Part shown: positions 49,065-57,614 of the stretch, piece by piece
Layout of the letters: each line of letters opens with the position of its first letter
How positions within the stretch are numbered: position 1 is the first letter of the stretch
Assembly: GCA_040768745.1 (NCBI GenBank)
Contig: JAXGMI010000001.1
Location: 128,001-192,000, forward strand
DNA: 64,000 nucleotides
From: Desulfomicrobium sp.
GTDB lineage: Bacteria > Desulfobacterota > Desulfovibrionia > Desulfovibrionales > Desulfomicrobiaceae
Reading direction: 5' to 3'
Made by a program: the position numbers and the translations under genes
Notes under the pieces: model-generated
Databases searched by the model: none
Seen by the model: the letters and a program-made list of their open reading frames with translations, nothing else
Told to the model about the DNA's origin: nothing

Positions 49065-49790
49065 ATGAAATTCCCTTCTTTCACCCTTCAGACCCTCGGC
49101 ATTCTTGCCCTGGCCGCGGGCTTAGGTCTGGCCTTCAACGCCAACCGGCCGGACAGTCTGCCGTTAGTCCGTGTCCACGAAGTCGCGGTCCAGGCTTCCC
49201 CGCAGGACAATGAAATAACCCTGCACGACGCGGCCCAGCTTTCTGCGTCCGGACAGGCTGTCTTCGTCGATGCGCGCGATGCATCGGACTATGCCCAGGG
49301 ACATATCGCCGGGGCCTTGTCCCTCCCGGCCTTTTCCTTTACCCAGGACTTCCCCTTGGTGCGGGACAGCCTCCACAACTCGACGGTCATCACCTATTGC
49401 GACGGCGAACACTGTGAGCTGAGCCGTGACCTGGCCGAACAGCTGAAGGCTCATGGCCTGCGCAATGTCCGCGTGCTCAAAAATGGCTGGACTCTGTGGC
49501 GGGACAAAGGGCTGCCCACCGCCACGGGCCAGGAACCCCTGCTCCGGGAACCCCAGGAACTGGAACATCCGGCGCAGGAATCCCTTTCGCAGGAGACCCC
49601 GCGGCTGGAGCATGCGCCGCAACAGACCATGCCGGACGGGCCTGCGCCAGAGCAGTCAACGCCAGAGGGGATCGCCCACCCGCAGGAGCCGGCGCAAGAA
49701 AAGTCCGCGCCGCAGGAAGCCACGCCGCAGGAACCGTTGCTCCAAAAGACTCCGCCCCAAGAATCAAAGCCCACGGGAGACCAATCATGA
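49065..49790 (+). CDS. Exported/membrane-anchored rhodanese-like protein with acidic Pro/Gln/Glu repeat tail
   Basis: N-terminal hydrophobic helix, VDAR....Y..GHIAGA, YCDGEHC, GW..W...GLP; AGGAG RBS. Confidence 0.85.
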   Translation: MKFPSFTLQTLGILALAAGLGLAFNANRPDSLPLVRVHEVAVQASPQDNEITLHDAAQLSASGQAVFVDARDASDYAQGHIAGALSLPAFSFTQDFPLVRDSLHNSTVITYCDGEHCELSRDLAEQLKAHGLRNVRVLKNGWTLWRDKGLPTATGQEPLLREPQELEHPAQESLSQETPRLEHAPQQTMPDGPAPEQSTPEGIAHPQEPAQEKSAPQEATPQEPLLQKTPPQESKPTGDQS

Positions 49791-50227
49791 CTGCAACAGG
49801 CTTGGCCCAGGCTTCGCGCATGGCTTTGGCATGTGTTTTTCTCGCTGCGGCCCCACATAAAATCCTGGTTCCGGCGGAGTTCGCCCAAAGCCTGTCCAGC
49901 TACCAGATTCTTCCGGACATGCTGATCAATTTCATCGCGCTCACCTTGCCTTGGCTGGAAATGCTCGTGGCCTTCCTGCTCCTCTGCCAGGTCTGGACAG
50001 GGCCGTCCCTGCTCCTGGCCAACGCGATGCTCACGGTTTTTCTCGGGGCCCTCGTCCTAGCGTACGTCAGGGGGATCGACATAGCCTGTGGGTGTTTCAG
50101 CTCCTTACGCACCCCTTCTGACGCCATGACCCTGTACATCGCGCGGGACGCTGCGTTCCTGGTTCTGGGTCTGATCGCGGCCTGGTTGCACGCAAACGGC
50201 CTGAAAAGAAAGACACTGGATGGATGA
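49787..50227 (+). CDS. MauE/DoxX family membrane protein
   Basis: LPWLE, RGIDIACGCF, RD motif; ATGA-coupled to the rhodanese gene. Confidence 0.88.
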   Translation: MTATGLAQASRMALACVFLAAAPHKILVPAEFAQSLSSYQILPDMLINFIALTLPWLEMLVAFLLLCQVWTGPSLLLANAMLTVFLGALVLAYVRGIDIACGCFSSLRTPSDAMTLYIARDAAFLVLGLIAAWLHANGLKRKTLDG

Positions 50228-50436: not shown

Positions 50437-51087
50437 TTATCTCCCGCCTGAATCAGAAGCCCCGCCATCAAGTGGCAGAATGGCCACCTGAACCACCCCC
50501 TGAAGAAGGCGGGCAAACTCCCTGGCATCGCTGTCGCTGCCAACCAGCGATCCGTAATGCATGGGCACAGTCAGACCAGGCATGATGTCTTTGGCCGCAG
50601 CCGCAGCTTCGGCCGCTGTCATGACGTAGGTGCCTGAAACGGGCAGCATGGCCACATCGACCCGGATACCCGTCATTTCAGGGATACGATCTGTGTCTCC
50701 GGCGTGGTAAAAGCGAAGTCCGTCCATCAGGAGCACAAAACCAAGCCAGCCGTTTTTTTGGGGATGAAATTTCTTGCCCACGTTGTAGGCGGGCATCACC
50801 TCCACCCTCACCCCGGCCACGTCGAGTGTGTCTCCCGGAACCACGATGCGCACATCACCCGTGAGTTTCTTCAACCCTGTTTTTTCAGTCACAATGATCG
50901 TGTCCGGCCTCGCGATTTTGGCCACATCCTCCGACGAGCAGTGATCGTAATGACTGTGTGTGATGAGGATGAGGTCGGCCTTGGGGCCTGCCTGGATCTG
51001 ATACGGATCGATGTACACAATCCTGGAGCCACGGATCAGGAAAGACGAATGGCCAAACCAGGTCAACATGTCTTGAGGAATGGTCAT
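50437..51087 (-). CDS. MBL-fold metallo-hydrolase
   Basis: GHSSF, THSHYDH, YHAGDT, PMHYG; GGAGG RBS (alternative start 51105). Confidence 0.9.
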   Translation of the reverse strand: MTIPQDMLTWFGHSSFLIRGSRIVYIDPYQIQAGPKADLILITHSHYDHCSSEDVAKIARPDTIIVTEKTGLKKLTGDVRIVVPGDTLDVAGVRVEVMPAYNVGKKFHPQKNGWLGFVLLMDGLRFYHAGDTDRIPEMTGIRVDVAMLPVSGTYVMTAAEAAAAAKDIMPGLTVPMHYGSLVGSDSDAREFARLLQGVVQVAILPLDGGASDSGGR

Positions 51088-51104
51088 GGATGCCTCCGTA
51101 CTCA

Positions 51105-51938
51105 TTAGGCCATCGTTTCATCGAGAAGCTGACCCAGACGCTCCAGATGGGCCTTCTCCTCGCCCGCGATCTGCTCCAGAATCTGCCGGTTCTCGTCGCT
51201 TTTGGTCCAGGCTGCCGCTCGCGAATAAAGGTCCAGGGCCTGGGCTTCGATGGACATGGCCATGGACACGACATCCACCACACTGTCGAAGTCTGGTTTG
51301 AACCGGTCCATGTAGTCCTCGGTAGTCAGCCCCCCCTCCATGAACGGCGAGACCAGGGAACACTCAAAAGCCCCCCGGTCGTCTTGCCCTGTCAGGCGGG
51401 TATACTCGGCAAAAAGCCGGTCCTTGTGCTTGATCTCGATCTCAGCCAGCAGGCGGAAGACGCTTTTGACCCTCTCGTCCTGAACCCGGTCCAGCATCTT
51501 CAGATAGAAGTCCCGCAGCCCGTCTTCGAGAGAATAGGCCATGGCCAGAATCTTTTCAGCGCTGTTCAGTTCGGCAAACAGGTCCACCCCTTCATCTTCC
51601 CCCCCGAACGCGCTCTGCCCGTTCCAGGCCTTATAGCCACCACTCAGATTGATGACATGATCGTATCCCTTGCCCGACAGGGTCTGGGAGGCCACCCGGC
51701 TGCGACCGCCGATGGCGCAATAGACAACCACAGGCTTGGAAGGATCGATCTCCTCCAGCCTGTCGGTCAGCTCGGGCAATGGAACCAGCTTGGCCCCAGG
51801 GATATGTCCGGCTTCGTATTCGCCCGGTTGACGGACATCGAGGATGGTCACCTCCTGCAGGGTCTTGTCGGACAGGTATTCCCTGACATCTGCAGCACTC
51901 ATGGATTGGACCGGTGTAAAGAACTGTTTCCAACGCAT
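51105..51938 (-). CDS. Rhodanese-ferritin-like (rubrerythrin-type) fusion protein
   Basis: DVRQ..EY..GHIPGA, YCAIGGRS; C-terminal E..H diiron-type motifs (EIKH, EKAH). Confidence 0.88.
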   Translation of the reverse strand: MRWKQFFTPVQSMSAADVREYLSDKTLQEVTILDVRQPGEYEAGHIPGAKLVPLPELTDRLEEIDPSKPVVVYCAIGGRSRVASQTLSGKGYDHVINLSGGYKAWNGQSAFGGEDEGVDLFAELNSAEKILAMAYSLEDGLRDFYLKMLDRVQDERVKSVFRLLAEIEIKHKDRLFAEYTRLTGQDDRGAFECSLVSPFMEGGLTTEDYMDRFKPDFDSVVDVVSMAMSIEAQALDLYSRAAAWTKSDENRQILEQIAGEEKAHLERLGQLLDETMA

Positions 51939-51996: not shown

Positions 51997-52010
51997 CATG
52001 TCTTGGTGTG

Positions 52011-52045
52011 TTGACATGAAGCCACGCTTATCGTTAATTTACGAT
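52011..52045 (+). promoter_or_regulatory. sigma70 promoter of arsR-hgcAB with overlapping ArsR-type palindrome
   Basis: TTGACA (52011) N17/18 TTAATT/TAATTT; palindrome ATCGTTAATTTACGAT (52030-52045, 7 of 8 pairs) covers the -10. Confidence 0.7.
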
Positions 52046-52065
52046 CATACTGTCATGGAACACGC

Positions 52066-52335
52066 ATGAACAAAGATCACAATCTGGCCGTGCTCTGCAA
52101 GGCCCTGGGGCACCCAGCCCGGGTGGCCATCCTCCGGCATCTGCTGCAGGTGGACCGCTGCATCTGCGGCGACATCGTGAACATCCTGCCCCTGGCCCAG
52201 TCCACGGTCAGCCAGCACCTCAAGCAGCTGAAGGAGGCCGGTCTGATCCGCGGTGAGATTGAAGGACCGTGCATCTGCTACTGCGCGGACAAAAATCGCC
52301 TGGCCGAACTCAAAAACCTCATCACCGCACTGTAG
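52066..52335 (+). CDS. arsR: ArsR/SmtB family metalloregulator
   Basis: [37 protein letters not shown]. Confidence 0.92.
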
Positions 52336-52341
52336 GCCCTT

Positions 52342-53526
52342 ATGAAACCGCTGCAGCCCTTTCCCATGGCGCCTTCCGGATCCTGCGAGGCTCCTTGCTC
52401 AGGGACCGAAATCTCCAAGCCGACCCCCTCGGCTCCGGGAGCGTGCTGAGGACCTCCGCCGGCCCCTGGTGCAGGGGTGGACGACCTTCCTGGCTATCGC
52501 ATCGAACCTTATGTGGATACGTTCATGCCCACCGCCGCAGGGCGCATTCCTCGCGTCCGGACCAGTCCCACGGCCTGGGACCGGCTCGGGACCTGCCGGG
52601 CCCGGCTGGGCCTGGACCGCAATCAATATATCGTCAACCCTGGCCTTTTTGCCGTAGGCCTGCCCGACGCCGGTTCGCCCGTGGTCGTCACCGCCAACTA
52701 CAAGCTGACCTTCGACACGGTCCGCTTCGCCCTGGCCGGGCGGGACGTCTGGCTGCTGGTGGTGGACACGCGCGGCATCAACGTCTGGTGCGCGGGCGGC
52801 AAGGGCACCTTCAACGCAGCCGGCGTCAGCGAGCAGGTCAGAAAGACCGGGCTCGAGCGCGTCGTGTCCCACCGTCAGCTGATCCTGCCCCAGCTCGGGG
52901 CCAACGGAGTGCGGGCCCTCGACCTGCGCAGGACCTGCGGGTTCGAGGCCGTGTTCGGACCCGTCCGGGCCGAGGACCTGCCCCGCTACCTGGACCAAGG
53001 CATCGACGAGGCCATGCGCGAGGTGACCTTCACCCTGCGGGAGCGGGCCACCGTCATCCCCGTGGAGCTGGTCCTGGGCTGGAAGCCCATCCTGGGCGCC
53101 TTGGCCGTGGCGGCGGTCCTGAGCCTTTTCGGGTACGGATTCTCCCTCGGGGCCGTCTGGAGCCGCTGGCTGGTGGCGGCAGGAGGCACCATCATGGGCC
53201 TCTTCTGCGGCGCGGTCCTCTTCCCTCTGCTCCTGCCGTGGCTGCCGCGCGCCTTTTCCCTGGGGGGGGCCGGACTCGGGCTGGCCGGCGCCCAGGTGCT
53301 GCCCCTTTTCTTCCCGCACGCCCCCTGGCCGGCACTGGCCGGGGCGGGGATGTGGACCGCCGTCCTCTCGTCCTGGCTGGGCCTCAATTTCACGGGTTCC
53401 ACGCCCTACACCTCGCCGTCGGGCGTGGAGAGGGAGATGCGCCGGGCCATCCCGGTTCTGGCGGCCTGCACCCTGCTGGCGTTGGTCCTGTTCGTGGCCG
53501 GAGGCTTCGCCGGTGGATCGGCATGA
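52342..53526 (+). CDS. hgcA: Mercury methylation corrinoid protein HgcA, predicted selenoprotein form (394 aa, Sec36 at TGA 52447-52449)
   Basis: TANYKLTFD, cap helix TRGINVWCAGGKGTF, PQLGA, FGPVRA.DLP, TM domain, NFTGSTPYTS.SGV..EM; the frame is open from ATG 52342 except for one TGA after TGC, followed by a hairpin. Gene identity is near certain; the extension and Sec are inferred. Confidence 0.93.
52459..52480 (+). promoter_or_regulatory. Putative bacterial SECIS element in hgcA
   Basis: CC-G-GCCCCUG-GUG-CAGGGGU-GG hairpin; the 7-bp core starts 13 nt after UGA and the loop begins with G. Confidence 0.7.
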
Positions 53527-53798
53527 AACGCTACCGCCACCTCGAAAACGTGACCACCTTGACCTATGACAAAGCCAAGTGCGTGGGCTGCGGCCTGTGC
53601 GCCACGGTCTGCCCGCACCGCATCTTCGCCCTGCAAGGCGGCAAGGCCGAAGTCCTGGACCGCGAGGCTTGCATGGAGTGCGGGGCCTGCGCCCTGAACT
53701 GCCCCACCGCGGCCATCACGGTCACACCCGGTGTGGGCTGCGCCCAGTACATCATCCAGACCTGGTTGCCGGGCAAGCGCAGGACGTCCTGCTGCTGA
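53523..53798 (+). CDS. hgcB: Mercury methylation ferredoxin HgcB
   Basis: CVGCGLCATVCPH and CMECGACALNCP, GVGCA, C-terminal CC; ATGA overlap with hgcA. Confidence 0.95.
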   Translation: MKRYRHLENVTTLTYDKAKCVGCGLCATVCPHRIFALQGGKAEVLDREACMECGACALNCPTAAITVTPGVGCAQYIIQTWLPGKRRTSCC

Positions 53799-53857
53799 AT
53801 CCTTGACCACGGCCCCGAAATGGCTGATCTTTTCGCTTCCAAATCACGGAGGACACC

Positions 53858-54412
53858 ATGCTCGACCGCGCTGAAGCGCTGGCCTTGCTCAAGGCCAGCG
53901 CCCCCGACCAACTCTATGTCCACGCCCTGGAAACCGAAGCCGTCATGCGCGCCCTGGCCGAACGCCTCGGCCACAATCAGGAGGTCTGGGGCCTGGCCGG
54001 TCTGCTGCACGACCTCGACTACCCGGAAACCAAGGACACGCCCGGAAAGCACGGCCTGCTGACCGCGGAAACCCTGACCGGCAAGCTGCCGGACGACGCC
54101 GTGCAGGCCATCGCCCGCCACAACGAGATGAACGGCAACCTGCCCCAGACCCCCTTCGACTTCGCCCTGCGCTGCGGCGAGACCGTCACCGGGCTGATCC
54201 ACACCGCCGCCCTGGTCCGCCCCACCCGCATGCAGGGCATGGAGGCCAAGAGCCTGAAGAAAAAGATGAAGGACAAGGCCTTCGCCGCCTCGGTCTGCCG
54301 CGAAACCATCAAGGAATGCGAGAAGATCGGCCTGGAGCTGGCCGACTTCCTGACCCTGGCCATAGGAGCCATCACGGGCATCGAGGCCGAGGTGGGACTG
54401 GCGGCGTCCTGA
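53858..54412 (+). CDS. HD/HDIG domain metal-dependent phosphohydrolase
   Basis: H...TEAVMRALA, GLLHDLD, HG, KK.KDKAFAA; GGAGGA RBS. Confidence 0.9.
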   Translation: MLDRAEALALLKASAPDQLYVHALETEAVMRALAERLGHNQEVWGLAGLLHDLDYPETKDTPGKHGLLTAETLTGKLPDDAVQAIARHNEMNGNLPQTPFDFALRCGETVTGLIHTAALVRPTRMQGMEAKSLKKKMKDKAFAASVCRETIKECEKIGLELADFLTLAIGAITGIEAEVGLAAS

Positions 54413-54416
54413 CTCC

Positions 54417-57400
54417 ATGGAAGGCTTCATCCTCCACGCATCCAACCGTCTGGAAAACCTGGCCGAACTGCTGGCTGAGGTGCTGAAATCACCGCCGGAC
54501 CCCATGCAACAGGAAACCATCCTGGTCCAGTCCGGCGGCATGCAGCGCTGGGTCTCCATGCAGCTGGCCCGCCGACACGGCGTCTGCGCGGGTGCGCGCT
54601 TCCCCTTCCCCGTGGCCTTCGCCTACGAACTCTGCCGGGAGCTGCTGGCCGACCTGCCCCCCGAATACCCCTTGAGCCAGGAGCGCATGCTCTGGCGCAT
54701 CGTGCACCTGCTGCGCGGCCTGCTGCACGAGCCGGAGTTTGCGCCCCTGGCGCGCTACGTGCGCGAGGACTCGGAGCTCAAGTCCGTGCAGCTGGCCGAG
54801 CGCATCGCCTATCATTTCGACCAGTACCTCATCTTCCGACCCCAGTGGGCCGCACGCTGGGAACGCCATGAACCGAGCGGGAACTTCGTCCTGCCCGGCC
54901 ACGTCACCAGCGAAGCCTGGCAGGCCAGGCTGTGGCGGGAACTGGTCAGGGACATGGGCGGGGAACACCGTGCAGCCCTGCTGCAGCGGGCCATCGCCAG
55001 ACTGGAAAAGGGCGTTTCCCTGCCGCGGCTGCCCGCCCGCGTCTGCGTCTTCGGCATCCCGACCCTGCCGCCGGTCTACTTGGACCTGCTGCAAGCACTA
55101 TCCCGGCACAGGCCGGTACATGTCTTTCTACTCAGCCCCTGCCGACAGTACTGGGGCGATCTCCTGACACACAGGGAGCAACGGCGGGCCTACCGGAGCC
55201 AGTTTCTATCCCTGGAAGAGCGTTTTGAGGACGCTACGCCACTAGCCGGACTCGGCGCAGTTGGCCGGGACTTTCTAGAATTGCTACTTGATAGAGACAT
55301 TCAGGAATCGGAGGAGGACCGCTACGAGGAGCCCGACACAACCACCATGCTCGGACAACTCCAGGCCGACCTTCTTGATCTGGACGTTCGCGAGGAAAAG
55401 ACGGACTTCTCCGACACCTCCATCCAGATCCACTGCTGCCACAGCCCCCTGCGCGAAATGGAGGTCCTCAAGGACCTGATCCTCGATCTCCTGTCCAAAG
55501 ACCCGTCCCTCTCCCCCCAGGACATCCTGGTCATGAATCCGGACATCGAGAGCTACGCGCCGGTCATCCAGGCCGTGTTCGGGACCGCCGGGGAGGGCCT
55601 CCCCTTCTCCATTTCCGACCGCAAGCCCACCAGGGCCGCCGAAACCGTCCGCCTCTTTCTCGACCTGCTGGAGTTCGGGCAGCACCGCTTCGAGGCTTCG
55701 CGCGTCTGCGCCCTGCTCGAAGCCCCGCCCGTGCGGCAACGCCTCGGCCTTTCCGCGGCCGAAACGCAGCGGGTTCTGGAATGGGTCCGCGCATCGGGCG
55801 TGCGCTGGGGGCTGGACCTGGATTTCCGCAGGCGGACGGGACTGGGGGATTTCGGACAGAACACATGGCAGAGCGGCCTGGCCCGCCTGTACCTCGGGTA
55901 CATGACCGGCGCGGCAAGCCCGCTCCACGGCATCGCCCCTCTCCCGCTGCGCGGCTCGGCCGAACAGGAGCTGCTGGGCCGCATGACCGACTGGATCGAC
56001 GAACTGGGGACCCTGTGGTCCCGGCTGCGCGACGCGCGCGCACCGGCCGACTGGCGGGACTGCCTGCTGTGGATCCTGGACGCCTTCTTTCCCCAGGACC
56101 GCGCCCAGGCCGAGCACCTGCTGGCCATCCGCAGGACCGTGACTGACCTCATCGACGAAATGGGTGACTTCGAGGCCGACGCCCGGACCATGCTCTACAT
56201 CGTCCGCAAGCGCCTGGACGAAAGCGGCGGCGAGTCGGGCTTCCTGGCCTCGGGCCTGACCTTCTGCGGCCTGCGCCCCATGCGCTCCATCCCTTTCCGG
56301 GTGGTTTGTCTGACGGGCCTGACCAGCACGGCCTTCCCGCGCCAGGACACCCCCCCGGGCTTCGATCTCATGGCCGCACGGCCCCGGCCCGGCGACCGCA
56401 GCCTCCGCGAGGACGACCGCTACCTGTTTCTGGAGAGCATCATCTCGGCCCGGGACAACCTCATCCTGACCTACCCCGGCCTGTCCCAGTCCGACAACGC
56501 CGAGGCCCCGCCCTCGGTCCTGGTCTCGGAACTGCTCGATTTCCTGGACAGGGGCTGCACCGTGGACGGAGGGAAACCATCGGAGACCCTTGTTTTCAGG
56601 CACAGACTGCAGGCCTTCCATCCGGACTATTTCAGCGCGGGGTCGGGCCTCTTCTCCTACTCGGCCCAAAACCGCCACGCGGCGCAGGCGCTGTTCGCCG
56701 AGCACCAGTCCAGGCAATTCTTCCCCGATCCCGCTATTCCCGGAGAGGCGCATGCAGAGCAGGAGATCGAGGTCGACATCGAGGAGCTGACCCGCTTCCT
56801 GACCCACCCCTGCCGCCACCTGCTGCGCGCCCTGCGTATCGACCCGGACTGCGGGGAGGACGAGCTTCTGGACGAGGAACCCCTGGCCGCACCCACGGGC
56901 CTCGACGCCTACGGCCCGCTGCAGGAGCTGCTGCGCACGGCCCTGGACGAGCCTGCCGCCGACCTCGAGGGACTCCTTCTGACCTGGCAGATCCTGCCTC
57001 CCGGACAGGCCGGTACGGACGCCGGACGGGAACTCTGCTCCCAGATCCGCTCCCTGGCCGACCAGGCACGGGCCGTCATCGGCGACGAAAAGGCCGCGCA
57101 CCTCGAACTGAAGCTGCTACTGGGCAGGGTCACGCTCACAGGGCGCCTCGACATCCACGGCGACCGCATCGTGACCTGCCGCCCGGCCAAGACCAAAAGC
57201 TCGGACATGCTCCGCCTGTGGGTCCGCCATCTGGCCGCCTCGGCCTCGGGCCTTGCGCCCCGGTCCACGCACATCGGCACCGATGACTGCTTCCCCGCAC
57301 CCGAAGCCCCGGACGCCCGGAATCTCCTCGAACGGTTGATGCGGCTCTACACGCAGGGCATGCGCGCCCCGCTGCCCTTCTTCCCCCGCACCTCCCTGGC

Positions 57401-57614
57401 CTTCGCCCAGGCCCGCTTCAAAGGCCGCAAGCCCAAGGAGCGACGAGAGGCATTGATGCAGGCCATGCGCCATTGGGTAGGCGGCTACATGGTCAGCCCC
57501 GAACGTGACGACCCGCACCTGGCCTTTCTCTTCCGCGACGTCGAGCCGGACTGGGAGGAATTCGCGGACGTGGCCGAGGAAATCTACGCCCCCCTCCTGG
57601 GAGGTGCCGATTGA
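54417..57614 (+). CDS. recC: Exodeoxyribonuclease V gamma subunit
   Basis: SNRLE.L, LVQS.GM.RW, FDQY..FRP.W, HSPLRE.EVL, PMRSIPFRV, DRYLFLE. Confidence 0.95.
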   Translation: MEGFILHASNRLENLAELLAEVLKSPPDPMQQETILVQSGGMQRWVSMQLARRHGVCAGARFPFPVAFAYELCRELLADLPPEYPLSQERMLWRIVHLLRGLLHEPEFAPLARYVREDSELKSVQLAERIAYHFDQYLIFRPQWAARWERHEPSGNFVLPGHVTSEAWQARLWRELVRDMGGEHRAALLQRAIARLEKGVSLPRLPARVCVFGIPTLPPVYLDLLQALSRHRPVHVFLLSPCRQYWGDLLTHREQRRAYRSQFLSLEERFEDATPLAGLGAVGRDFLELLLDRDIQESEEDRYEEPDTTTMLGQLQADLLDLDVREEKTDFSDTSIQIHCCHSPLREMEVLKDLILDLLSKDPSLSPQDILVMNPDIESYAPVIQAVFGTAGEGLPFSISDRKPTRAAETVRLFLDLLEFGQHRFEASRVCALLEAPPVRQRLGLSAAETQRVLEWVRASGVRWGLDLDFRRRTGLGDFGQNTWQSGLARLYLGYMTGAASPLHGIAPLPLRGSAEQELLGRMTDWIDELGTLWSRLRDARAPADWRDCLLWILDAFFPQDRAQAEHLLAIRRTVTDLIDEMGDFEADARTMLYIVRKRLDESGGESGFLASGLTFCGLRPMRSIPFRVVCLTGLTSTAFPRQDTPPGFDLMAARPRPGDRSLREDDRYLFLESIISARDNLILTYPGLSQSDNAEAPPSVLVSELLDFLDRGCTVDGGKPSETLVFRHRLQAFHPDYFSAGSGLFSYSAQNRHAAQALFAEHQSRQFFPDPAIPGEAHAEQEIEVDIEELTRFLTHPCRHLLRALRIDPDCGEDELLDEEPLAAPTGLDAYGPLQELLRTALDEPAADLEGLLLTWQILPPGQAGTDAGRELCSQIRSLADQARAVIGDEKAAHLELKLLLGRVTLTGRLDIHGDRIVTCRPAKTKSSDMLRLWVRHLAASASGLAPRSTHIGTDDCFPAPEAPDARNLLERLMRLYTQGMRAPLPFFPRTSLAFAQARFKGRKPKERREALMQAMRHWVGGYMVSPERDDPHLAFLFRDVEPDWEEFADVAEEIYAPLLGGAD

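Follow-up and report, generated by a model that had tools for sequence, protein, structure and literature searches.

An in-frame UGA and a conserved hairpin point to a Cys-selenocysteine arm at the N terminus of HgcA in Desulfomicrobium

Where does the mercury methylase HgcA begin? The question is raised by a stretch of Desulfomicrobium sp. DNA, 64,000 nucleotides (nt) long and called the window below (positions 128,001 to 192,000 of contig JAXGMI010000001.1, assembly GCA_040768745.1), in which gene callers start hgcA at GTG 52477 and list an open reading frame (ORF) of 349 residues. The same frame runs back to ATG 52342, which makes that GTG its codon 46, 45 codons downstream of the ATG. Between the ATG and 53524 the frame is interrupted only once, by a TGA at 52447-52449 that directly follows TGC (Cys35). 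An earlier reading of this DNA, the original prediction, had proposed that the TGA is recoded as selenocysteine (Sec), that a hairpin just 3' of it acts as a selenocysteine insertion sequence (SECIS), and that gene callers thereby miss an N-terminal arm of the protein. Its coordinates for the ATG, TGA, GTG and hairpin are all exact, its peptide string is identical to ours letter for letter, and the called ORF does omit the arm.

We conclude, with a probability of about 0.9, that hgcA here is a selenoprotein gene that starts at ATG 52342 and has its UGA read as Sec. Translation would begin at this ATG, and at UGA 52447 the hairpin at 52460-52480 of the mRNA would recruit SelB together with Sec-tRNA(Sec), with selenocysteine being inserted. 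The resulting HgcA would have 394 residues, of which the first ∼45 would make up an unstructured tether rich in proline; on it, ahead of the corrinoid-binding domain, would sit a vicinal pair of Cys35 and Sec36. What raises the hairpin, the frame and the recoding above chance is the conservation of C-U/C-G, the synonymous variation upstream of the TGA, and a hairpin that both covaries and is specific to the Sec forms. The protein matches the HgcA_corrinoid profile NF040863 with 372.9 bits (cut-off 275; residues 69-389 on positions 1-324 of 325). It also contains GINVWCAGGKGTF, a match to the cap-helix motif N(V/I)WCA(A/G)GK of the original HgcA description.

The exchange of codons at the TGA position was followed in 201 genomes of the same order, searched with the extended protein. 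The gene hgcA is present in 71 of these, and the in-frame upstream region was read at all 71 loci. At the aligned position 58 loci have C-TGA-G and 8 have C-TGC/TGT-G (L045, L049, L051-L054, L056 and L059), while three have no C-U/C-G motif (L055, L058 and L081) and two are cut by a contig end (L038 and L079). This is the Sec/Cys exchange that the recoding proposal had called for. A wider sample, the best 80 of 580 relatives from a collection of species-representative genomes, overlaps in part with the first and extends to Desulfobulbus- and Desulfobacterales-type lineages; it contains 38 TGA forms, 40 forms with a Cys codon, one locus without the motif and one truncated locus. Homologues of the full-length protein can be aligned from residue 1 across the TGA. 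Counted from the U/C codon, the ORF reaches its stop after 354-369 codons in 61 of 66 loci, which argues for a single Sec site and not several; of the remaining five, two meet a contig end, two are split genes and one has an internal TAG. Finally, in a MAFFT alignment of 90 protein rows (A6; the soluble 230-residue part, with 44 of the 69 usable Sec rows and all 45 Cys rows), C35, U/C36 and G37 are invariant in 90/90 rows, and no other arm position is invariant before Gly51. The cap-helix residues W149, C150, A151, G153 and K154 are likewise invariant in this alignment.

A few loci depart from the common pattern. L055 (G197:C4:84061-86218) has no C-U/C-G at the usual place; an in-frame A-C-TGA-P-P lies ∼50 codons further upstream, with a 7-bp hairpin directly 3' of its TGA and the first in-frame start 29 codons downstream of it, and is possibly a Sec site at a shifted position. 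L059, from a congener, is a CC form. At L058 (G185) the vicinal pair is replaced by P-C-R-C. L081 (G183) is a divergent HgcA-like gene, 34% identical and devoid of a motif of this kind; it is perhaps no genuine HgcA. Among L057 (G005), L082 (G041) and L056 (G027), two genomes have hgcA broken into two frames or pieces and the third has a TAG within the gene; these could be pseudogenes or assembly errors.

Upstream of the TGA, we compared codons in 22 close relatives, which comprise 17 distinct sequences (L032 and L033, without the MxPLxP motif, were left out). ATG 52342 is invariant, and many relatives have a stop codon 1-3 codons upstream of the matching ATG. Within the 17 distinct sequences Pro3 is encoded by all four of its codons, Leu4 by five and Pro6 by three, and codon positions 1, 2 and 3 account for 4, 1 and 7 variable columns, respectively. 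This pattern indicates that the stretch upstream of the TGA evolves as coding sequence and is translated, as the proposal of a hidden arm would have it. The GTG chosen by gene callers behaves differently. It is GTG in 12 of 23 distinct close sequences (alignment A2, described below) and GTC, GTA or GCC in the other 11, and the first in-frame start after the TGA stands at +10 in only 15 of 58 Sec forms. By this comparison GTG 52477 is no conserved start codon.

The arm holds 12 prolines in its residues 1-45. Besides the Cys-Sec pair, a second conserved island is seen in it, L-Q-P-F-P-M-A-P (52351-52374, hgcA codons 4-11), ∼25-30 residues before the pair. In A6 the island columns have Leu at position 4 in 54/83 rows, Pro at position 6 in 73/83, F, L or I at position 7 in 63/82 and Pro at position 11 in 40/52; the strict pattern L-x-P-[FLI] occurs in 40 of 90 arms. 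The arrangement L-x-P-[FLI] ... M-A-[PSG] is common to Sec and Cys forms of several lineages, and the linker from island to CU is hypervariable in both length and sequence. The L-x-P-[FLI] island could be a docking motif. An AlphaFold2 model built from the 90-row alignment (mean predicted local distance difference test score, pLDDT, 86.8; predicted template modelling score 0.79) gives pLDDT values of 57, 53, 54 and 68 for the first four ten-residue blocks, with essentially no secondary structure, and 91-98 over most of the fold from residue 51. A flexible tether would be the natural reading of such a model, where low confidence is no proof of disorder. A protein-database search for the arm gave only one match that touches residues 1-70, a truncated 346-residue form, from an index that cannot match U-bearing records.

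Bacterial SECIS elements are stem-loops whose apical loop lies 16-37 nt after the UGA and has a G among its first two bases. At our locus the stem GCCCCUG/CAGGGGU closes a GUG loop (52469-52471); its first base is the 13th nt after the UGA, the loop starts 19 nt after the UGA, and a G-G mismatch separates the stem from an outer pair, C52460-G52480. The 3' arm includes G52477 and T52478 of the GTG. The locus thus shows the distance and the G-loop of the consensus, and it does so with covariation in the alignments that follow. The element resembles the SECIS of Escherichia coli fdhF, another stem-loop that follows the UGA directly, inside the coding sequence, and has a loop ∼20 nt downstream with a G-rich start, but it differs in being a GUG triloop on a 7-bp G+C-rich stem and in a register that varies between HgcA clades.

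Every TGA clade has the hairpin ∼20 nt downstream, despite peptides as different as GPPPAPGAG, GPKPDPRAG, GPQTVSGFG and GPRNELPPEAAG. An ungapped alignment of 55 distinct Sec-form downstream regions (A1) shows it in three registers, and because the pairing register differs between clades, A1 was split into A2, A3 and A4 for pair counts. In A2 (23 sequences) 94.2% of cells are paired versus 40-58% with slid partners, and 3 of 9 pairs are compensatory. The corresponding values are 83.3%, 27-49% and 6 of 8 for A3 (12 sequences), and 98.8%, 27.5-87.5% and 2 of 8 for A4 (20 sequences), where one row, L080, is the source of both compensatory pairs and is also unlike its clade in the peptide at the hairpin (…ILAPEVEGE… vs …ELPPEAAGE…). 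Two of the compensatory A2 pairs join synonymous third positions: columns 24-30 (52467/52473 in the window) read UA in 18 sequences and CG in 5, with none unpaired, and columns 21-33 (52464/52476) read CG in 19, UA in 2, UG in 1 and another combination in 1. None of 500 shuffles reached the observed A2 covariation score; since the sequences are related, such shuffle counts overstate independence, and the slid-partner control is the fairer one.

We also applied an alignment-free stem test, which scores a contiguous stem of at least 6 with its loop starting 16-37 nt downstream of the codon. The test is passed by 71 of 85 distinct Sec forms, by 6 of 48 Cys forms and by 16.8% of 39,708 other in-frame positions of the same genes. 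Among the Sec forms, 81/85 have a G in the first two loop bases, and the loop starts 18-23 nt after the UGA in 81/85. On this comparative evidence we regard the hairpin as a conserved, Sec-form-specific SECIS, directly 3' of the UGA as originally proposed. With the UGA distance kept, the register differs by clade (column sums 54, 55 and 62; loops GUG, CGUGCC, GGUU and GGA), and the SECIS appears to have been rebuilt repeatedly on a changing peptide sequence. The six Cys forms with a stem score of at least 6 at the SECIS position are L052, L054, L056, L097, L110 and L118, and that of L056 has 7 perfect pairs and a CUUC loop. Such stems may be relics of a recent change from Sec to Cys or, as their rate equals the background rate, may be due to chance.

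The machinery that the recoding would need is encoded in the genome, as had been expected: a tRNA-Sec (83.4 bits vs a cut-off of 47; reported by ARAGORN as tRNA-SeC with anticodon TCA), selA (628.1 bits), selB (365.9 bits) and selD (324.4 bits). The last of these contains one in-frame TGA (G000:C1:1640892-1641815, locus L011), and selenophosphate synthetase is probably itself a selenoprotein.

Several observations weigh against the selenoprotein reading or fail to help it. The hairpin is not unusually stable: a 60-nt fold has a minimum free energy of -20.6 kcal/mol (z = +0.26), and an equal or better fold is reached by 116 of 200 dinucleotide shuffles, so that folding energy was rejected as evidence for a SECIS. 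An Rfam scan of 52000-53000 gave three chance-level matches elsewhere and nothing that corresponds to a general bacterial SECIS. Of the Sec forms, 14/85 fall below the stem threshold, with interrupted stems. The gene selA is found in 182 of the 201 genomes, all 8 Cys-form genomes among them, and was not found in 4 Sec-form genomes, whose assemblies are 69-94% complete. Nearly the whole order has selA; its presence was rejected as a discriminator of Sec from Cys forms, and its distribution fits the Sec reading without testing it. The NF040863 profile does not cover the arm; its match begins at residue 69, which makes it uninformative on the arm. In the literature searched we found bioinformatic statements and no experimental proof of Sec in any HgcA. 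The open frame in turn is little evidence here, because a 509-residue ORF in an alternative frame (52269-53798), an artefact of G+C-rich DNA, covers the whole of hgcA and runs on into the hgcB frame. With neither the open frame nor the hairpin energy above chance, a comparative case is needed.

The rival account that survives best accepts the inserted Sec and disputes only its task. For that task, the mercuric reductase MerA offers one model, with a C-terminal Cys-Cys tail that hands Hg(II) to the active site. HgcB offers another: in passages of the 2024 PNAS HgcAB paper, its flexible C94/C95 tail is proposed for Hg(II) hand-over (PMC11588087). These tails share with the HgcA arm a vicinal chalcogen pair on a mobile segment near a buried reaction centre; the arm differs in that selenium takes the place of one sulfur, in its N-terminal position, and in being known from sequence alone. 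By analogy with the vicinal Cys pairs of MerA and HgcB, capture and hand-over would be the most likely role. The Cys-Sec pair would be a soft-metal ligand on a flexible arm that takes up Hg(II) or holds the CH3Hg+ product, and would pass either of them to or from the methyl-cobalamin site. We give this role about even odds; no experiments on arm function were found in the literature searched.

Three points count against a metal-handling arm, at least as it was first drawn. The original prediction had also enlisted Cys15 and Cys19 as members of the metal site, and this part is not supported, as neither is conserved: their columns in A6 have C in only 19/41 and 11/43 non-gap rows, and 20/90 arms have no Cys at all upstream of the C-U/C pair. 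Second, the motif is missing from 3 of the order's 69 informative loci, which speaks against an essential role in Hg(II) capture. Third, N-terminally His-tagged HgcAB of ND132, expressed in E. coli, methylated Hg in lysate (PMC11588087). The passages of that paper considered here do not state the start codon; we infer that the construct probably had no arm, because an N-terminal tag before a Sec codon would hardly allow full-length purification. The result suggests that the catalytic core can work without the Sec arm, and the activity in lysate weakens the further claim that methylmercury output depends on selenium.

The main alternative, which we consider unlikely, is that the pair cycles as a selenylsulfide and acquires no Hg(II); its redox task might be, for example, to maintain the corrinoid or the thiols of HgcB in reduced form or to shield the enzyme from the substrate it acts on. 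A precedent is thioredoxin reductase, with a redox-active C-terminal Gly-Cys-Sec-Gly arm next to a flavin/dithiol centre. G-A-C-U-G in HgcA resembles that G-C-U-G tail, and both would place Cys-Sec-Gly on a flexible terminal tail; the reductase tail, however, is C-terminal and works beside a flavin/dithiol centre that HgcA does not have. The flexibility predicted for the arm and the apparent competence of a presumably armless recombinant core (PMC11588087, passages as above) would also suit a redox task. Against it, HgcB already supplies electrons, and in the survey published by Haft and Gwadz, as far as its passages used here go, CU motifs cluster in organometal-handling proteins (bioRxiv 10.1101/2022.07.06.499078). 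SaoL, SaoB and SaoC of the SAO system are examples: they too have vicinal Cys-Sec in organometal-linked proteins, and in these passages packed Cys residues often replace the Cys-Sec in homologues without Sec. They differ from HgcA in their unrelated folds and in a C-terminal or internal motif, where that of HgcA sits on an N-terminal, predictedly disordered arm of a corrinoid protein.

An elaboration of the selenoprotein reading, which we think improbable, is that the SECIS has a second task in this lineage, as an isoform switch that responds to selenium. Where Sec-tRNA is available, readthrough of UGA 52447 would give the arm-bearing HgcA; where selenium is scarce, termination 27 nt upstream of GTG 52477 would be followed by reinitiation there and would give an armless, still catalytic HgcA. 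If so, selenium supply would tune the affinity of HgcA for Hg(II) and would not act as an on/off control of methylation. This GTG occurs here and in the 15 of 58 Sec forms counted above, and an armless core seems to be active; however, since the family at large does not conserve the GTG, such a switch would be a local elaboration at most.

Readings that do without Sec fare far worse. In one, the TGA is a true stop, ATG 52342 to TGA 52449 is a separate 35-residue leader peptide, and HgcA starts at GTG 52477. ORF callers pick this GTG, the sole database protein that touches the region is the truncated 346-residue form, and NF040863 requires nothing upstream of residue 69. Yet the frame is conserved over the 9 codons from TGA to GTG, including an invariant G37, in 8 + 40 homologues a Cys codon stands in for the TGA within one continuous ORF, the GTG itself is replaced in 11 of 23 close sequences, and a Sec-form-specific hairpin follows the TGA; we hold a leader peptide to be very improbable. 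Readthrough by a tRNA other than Sec-tRNA (near-cognate Trp or Cys), with a hairpin that merely slows termination, is the least probable account of all: it can point to an unexceptional hairpin energy and to a Sec that is predicted in the protein by sequence comparison, but the genome has the complete Sec machinery, the alternative residue in homologues is always Cys, the expected counterpart of Sec, and the hairpin has a SECIS-like distance and a G-containing loop in 81/85 Sec forms and occurs in Cys forms only at background level.

The selenoprotein form of HgcA is already known, published in 2022-2023 by Haft and Gwadz, and our result is a sound rediscovery. The original prediction had mentioned that CU-containing HgcA extensions were reported on bioinformatic grounds; this is correct, and the class is therefore not new. 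According to the passages of their preprint ('Eight unexpected selenoprotein families...', bioRxiv 10.1101/2022.07.06.499078) drawn on here, most HgcA are selenoproteins, and their CU motif lies on the N-terminal side of the start that had been predicted; 20 of 20 hgcA genes examined could be extended through one UGA as Sec, to 363-400 residues; all of the species concerned encode the Sec machinery; and reference data were added to the NCBI annotation pipeline. The 2024 PNAS HgcAB paper (PMC11588087) cites the journal version, J Bacteriol 205:e00259-22, as suggesting that some hgcA and hgcB homologues may be selenoproteins. In the table of a 2026 review, HgcA (NF040863) appears among the selenoproteins of prokaryotes under the motif CU, and a Sec form of HgcB is given the motif GVGU (PMC13188914).

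Our gene agrees with the published ones in its HgcA core, the adjacent hgcB, a single in-frame UGA upstream of the annotated start, the C-U-G-P motif, the Sec machinery and a length of 394 residues, within 363-400. The ND132 extension given there, …DDAPCUGPRPDPRAGVFEKPGY…, is by its sequence plainly homologous to the arm predicted here. There are also small differences from those passages. The motif is ACUGP here, where PCUGP was called perfectly conserved in the 20 sequences; in the 90 aligned rows the residue before the Cys pair is P in 48, A in 20, V in 20 and S in 1, so the strict pentapeptide fails for the family at large. The ND132 extension, described as 'minimal', starts with MAP; in our gene the conserved start is found 8 codons farther upstream. 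In the passages at hand SECIS elements appear only in the methods and for SaoC, and the HgcA hairpin with its covariation may be an addition to the published account. The supplementary alignment of Haft and Gwadz (Fig. S7) may already show some of these differences.

The coordinates of the features are collected in Table 1. Between the arsR stop (TAG, 52333-52335) and the hgcA ATG lie 6 nt, and a terminator scan of the region found no terminator-like site in this gap. The same region yielded no promoter-like site in a promoter scan and two terminator-like sites, a count at chance level. A terminator-like hairpin with a T-run lies 3' of hgcB (53810-53835), in a region where such sites occur at chance level. 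The genes hgcA and hgcB overlap by ATGA (53523-53526), which suggests translational coupling.

Table 1. Features of the predicted selenoprotein gene hgcA and its surroundings (positions in the window)
Feature	Position	Strand	Basis or remark
Full-length hgcA (predicted)	52342..53526	+	394 codons including Sec36, plus stop TGA 53524-53526; translation with TGA = U
N-terminal arm missed by gene callers	52342..52476	+	residues 1-45, Pro/Gly/Ala/Ser-rich; island MKPLQPFPMAP at start, C35-U36-G37 near end
TGC-TGA, predicted Cys35-Sec36 codons	52444..52449	+	sequence and translation with TGA = U
Predicted SECIS hairpin	52460..52480	+	7-bp core 52462-52468 / 52472-52478, one G-U
GTG chosen as start by ORF callers	52477..52479	+	349-residue ORF listed; here Val46, within the 3' arm of the SECIS
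hgcB	53523..53798	+	91 residues, Cys form (GVGC), C-terminal Cys-Cys; NF040864 HgcB_ferredoxin 124.7 bits, cut-off 99
arsR-type metalloregulator gene	52066..52335	+	NF033788 HTH_metalloreg 71.1 bits vs cut-off 55
Rhodanese-rubrerythrin fusion protein	51108-51938	opposite	upstream of arsR-hgcA
Metallo-beta-lactamase-fold protein	50440-51105	opposite	upstream of arsR-hgcA
MauE-family membrane protein	49496-50224	+	upstream of arsR-hgcA
HD-domain protein	53858-54409		downstream of hgcB
RecC-like gene	54417-57611		downstream of hgcB

What this analysis adds is, for one genome, the exact start codon, Sec codon and SECIS pairs, together with naturally covarying pairs, synonymous sites included, that would allow clean hairpin mutants. 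It also carries a caution: hgcA surveys and expression constructs that rely on automatic gene calls leave the arm out. Methylmercury, the product of HgcA, is the mercury species that builds up in food webs. If the Cys-Sec pair does handle Hg(II) or the methylated product, an idea already in print would apply here: selenium availability could influence methylation from inside the enzyme, an effect that would add to HgSe chemistry outside the cell.

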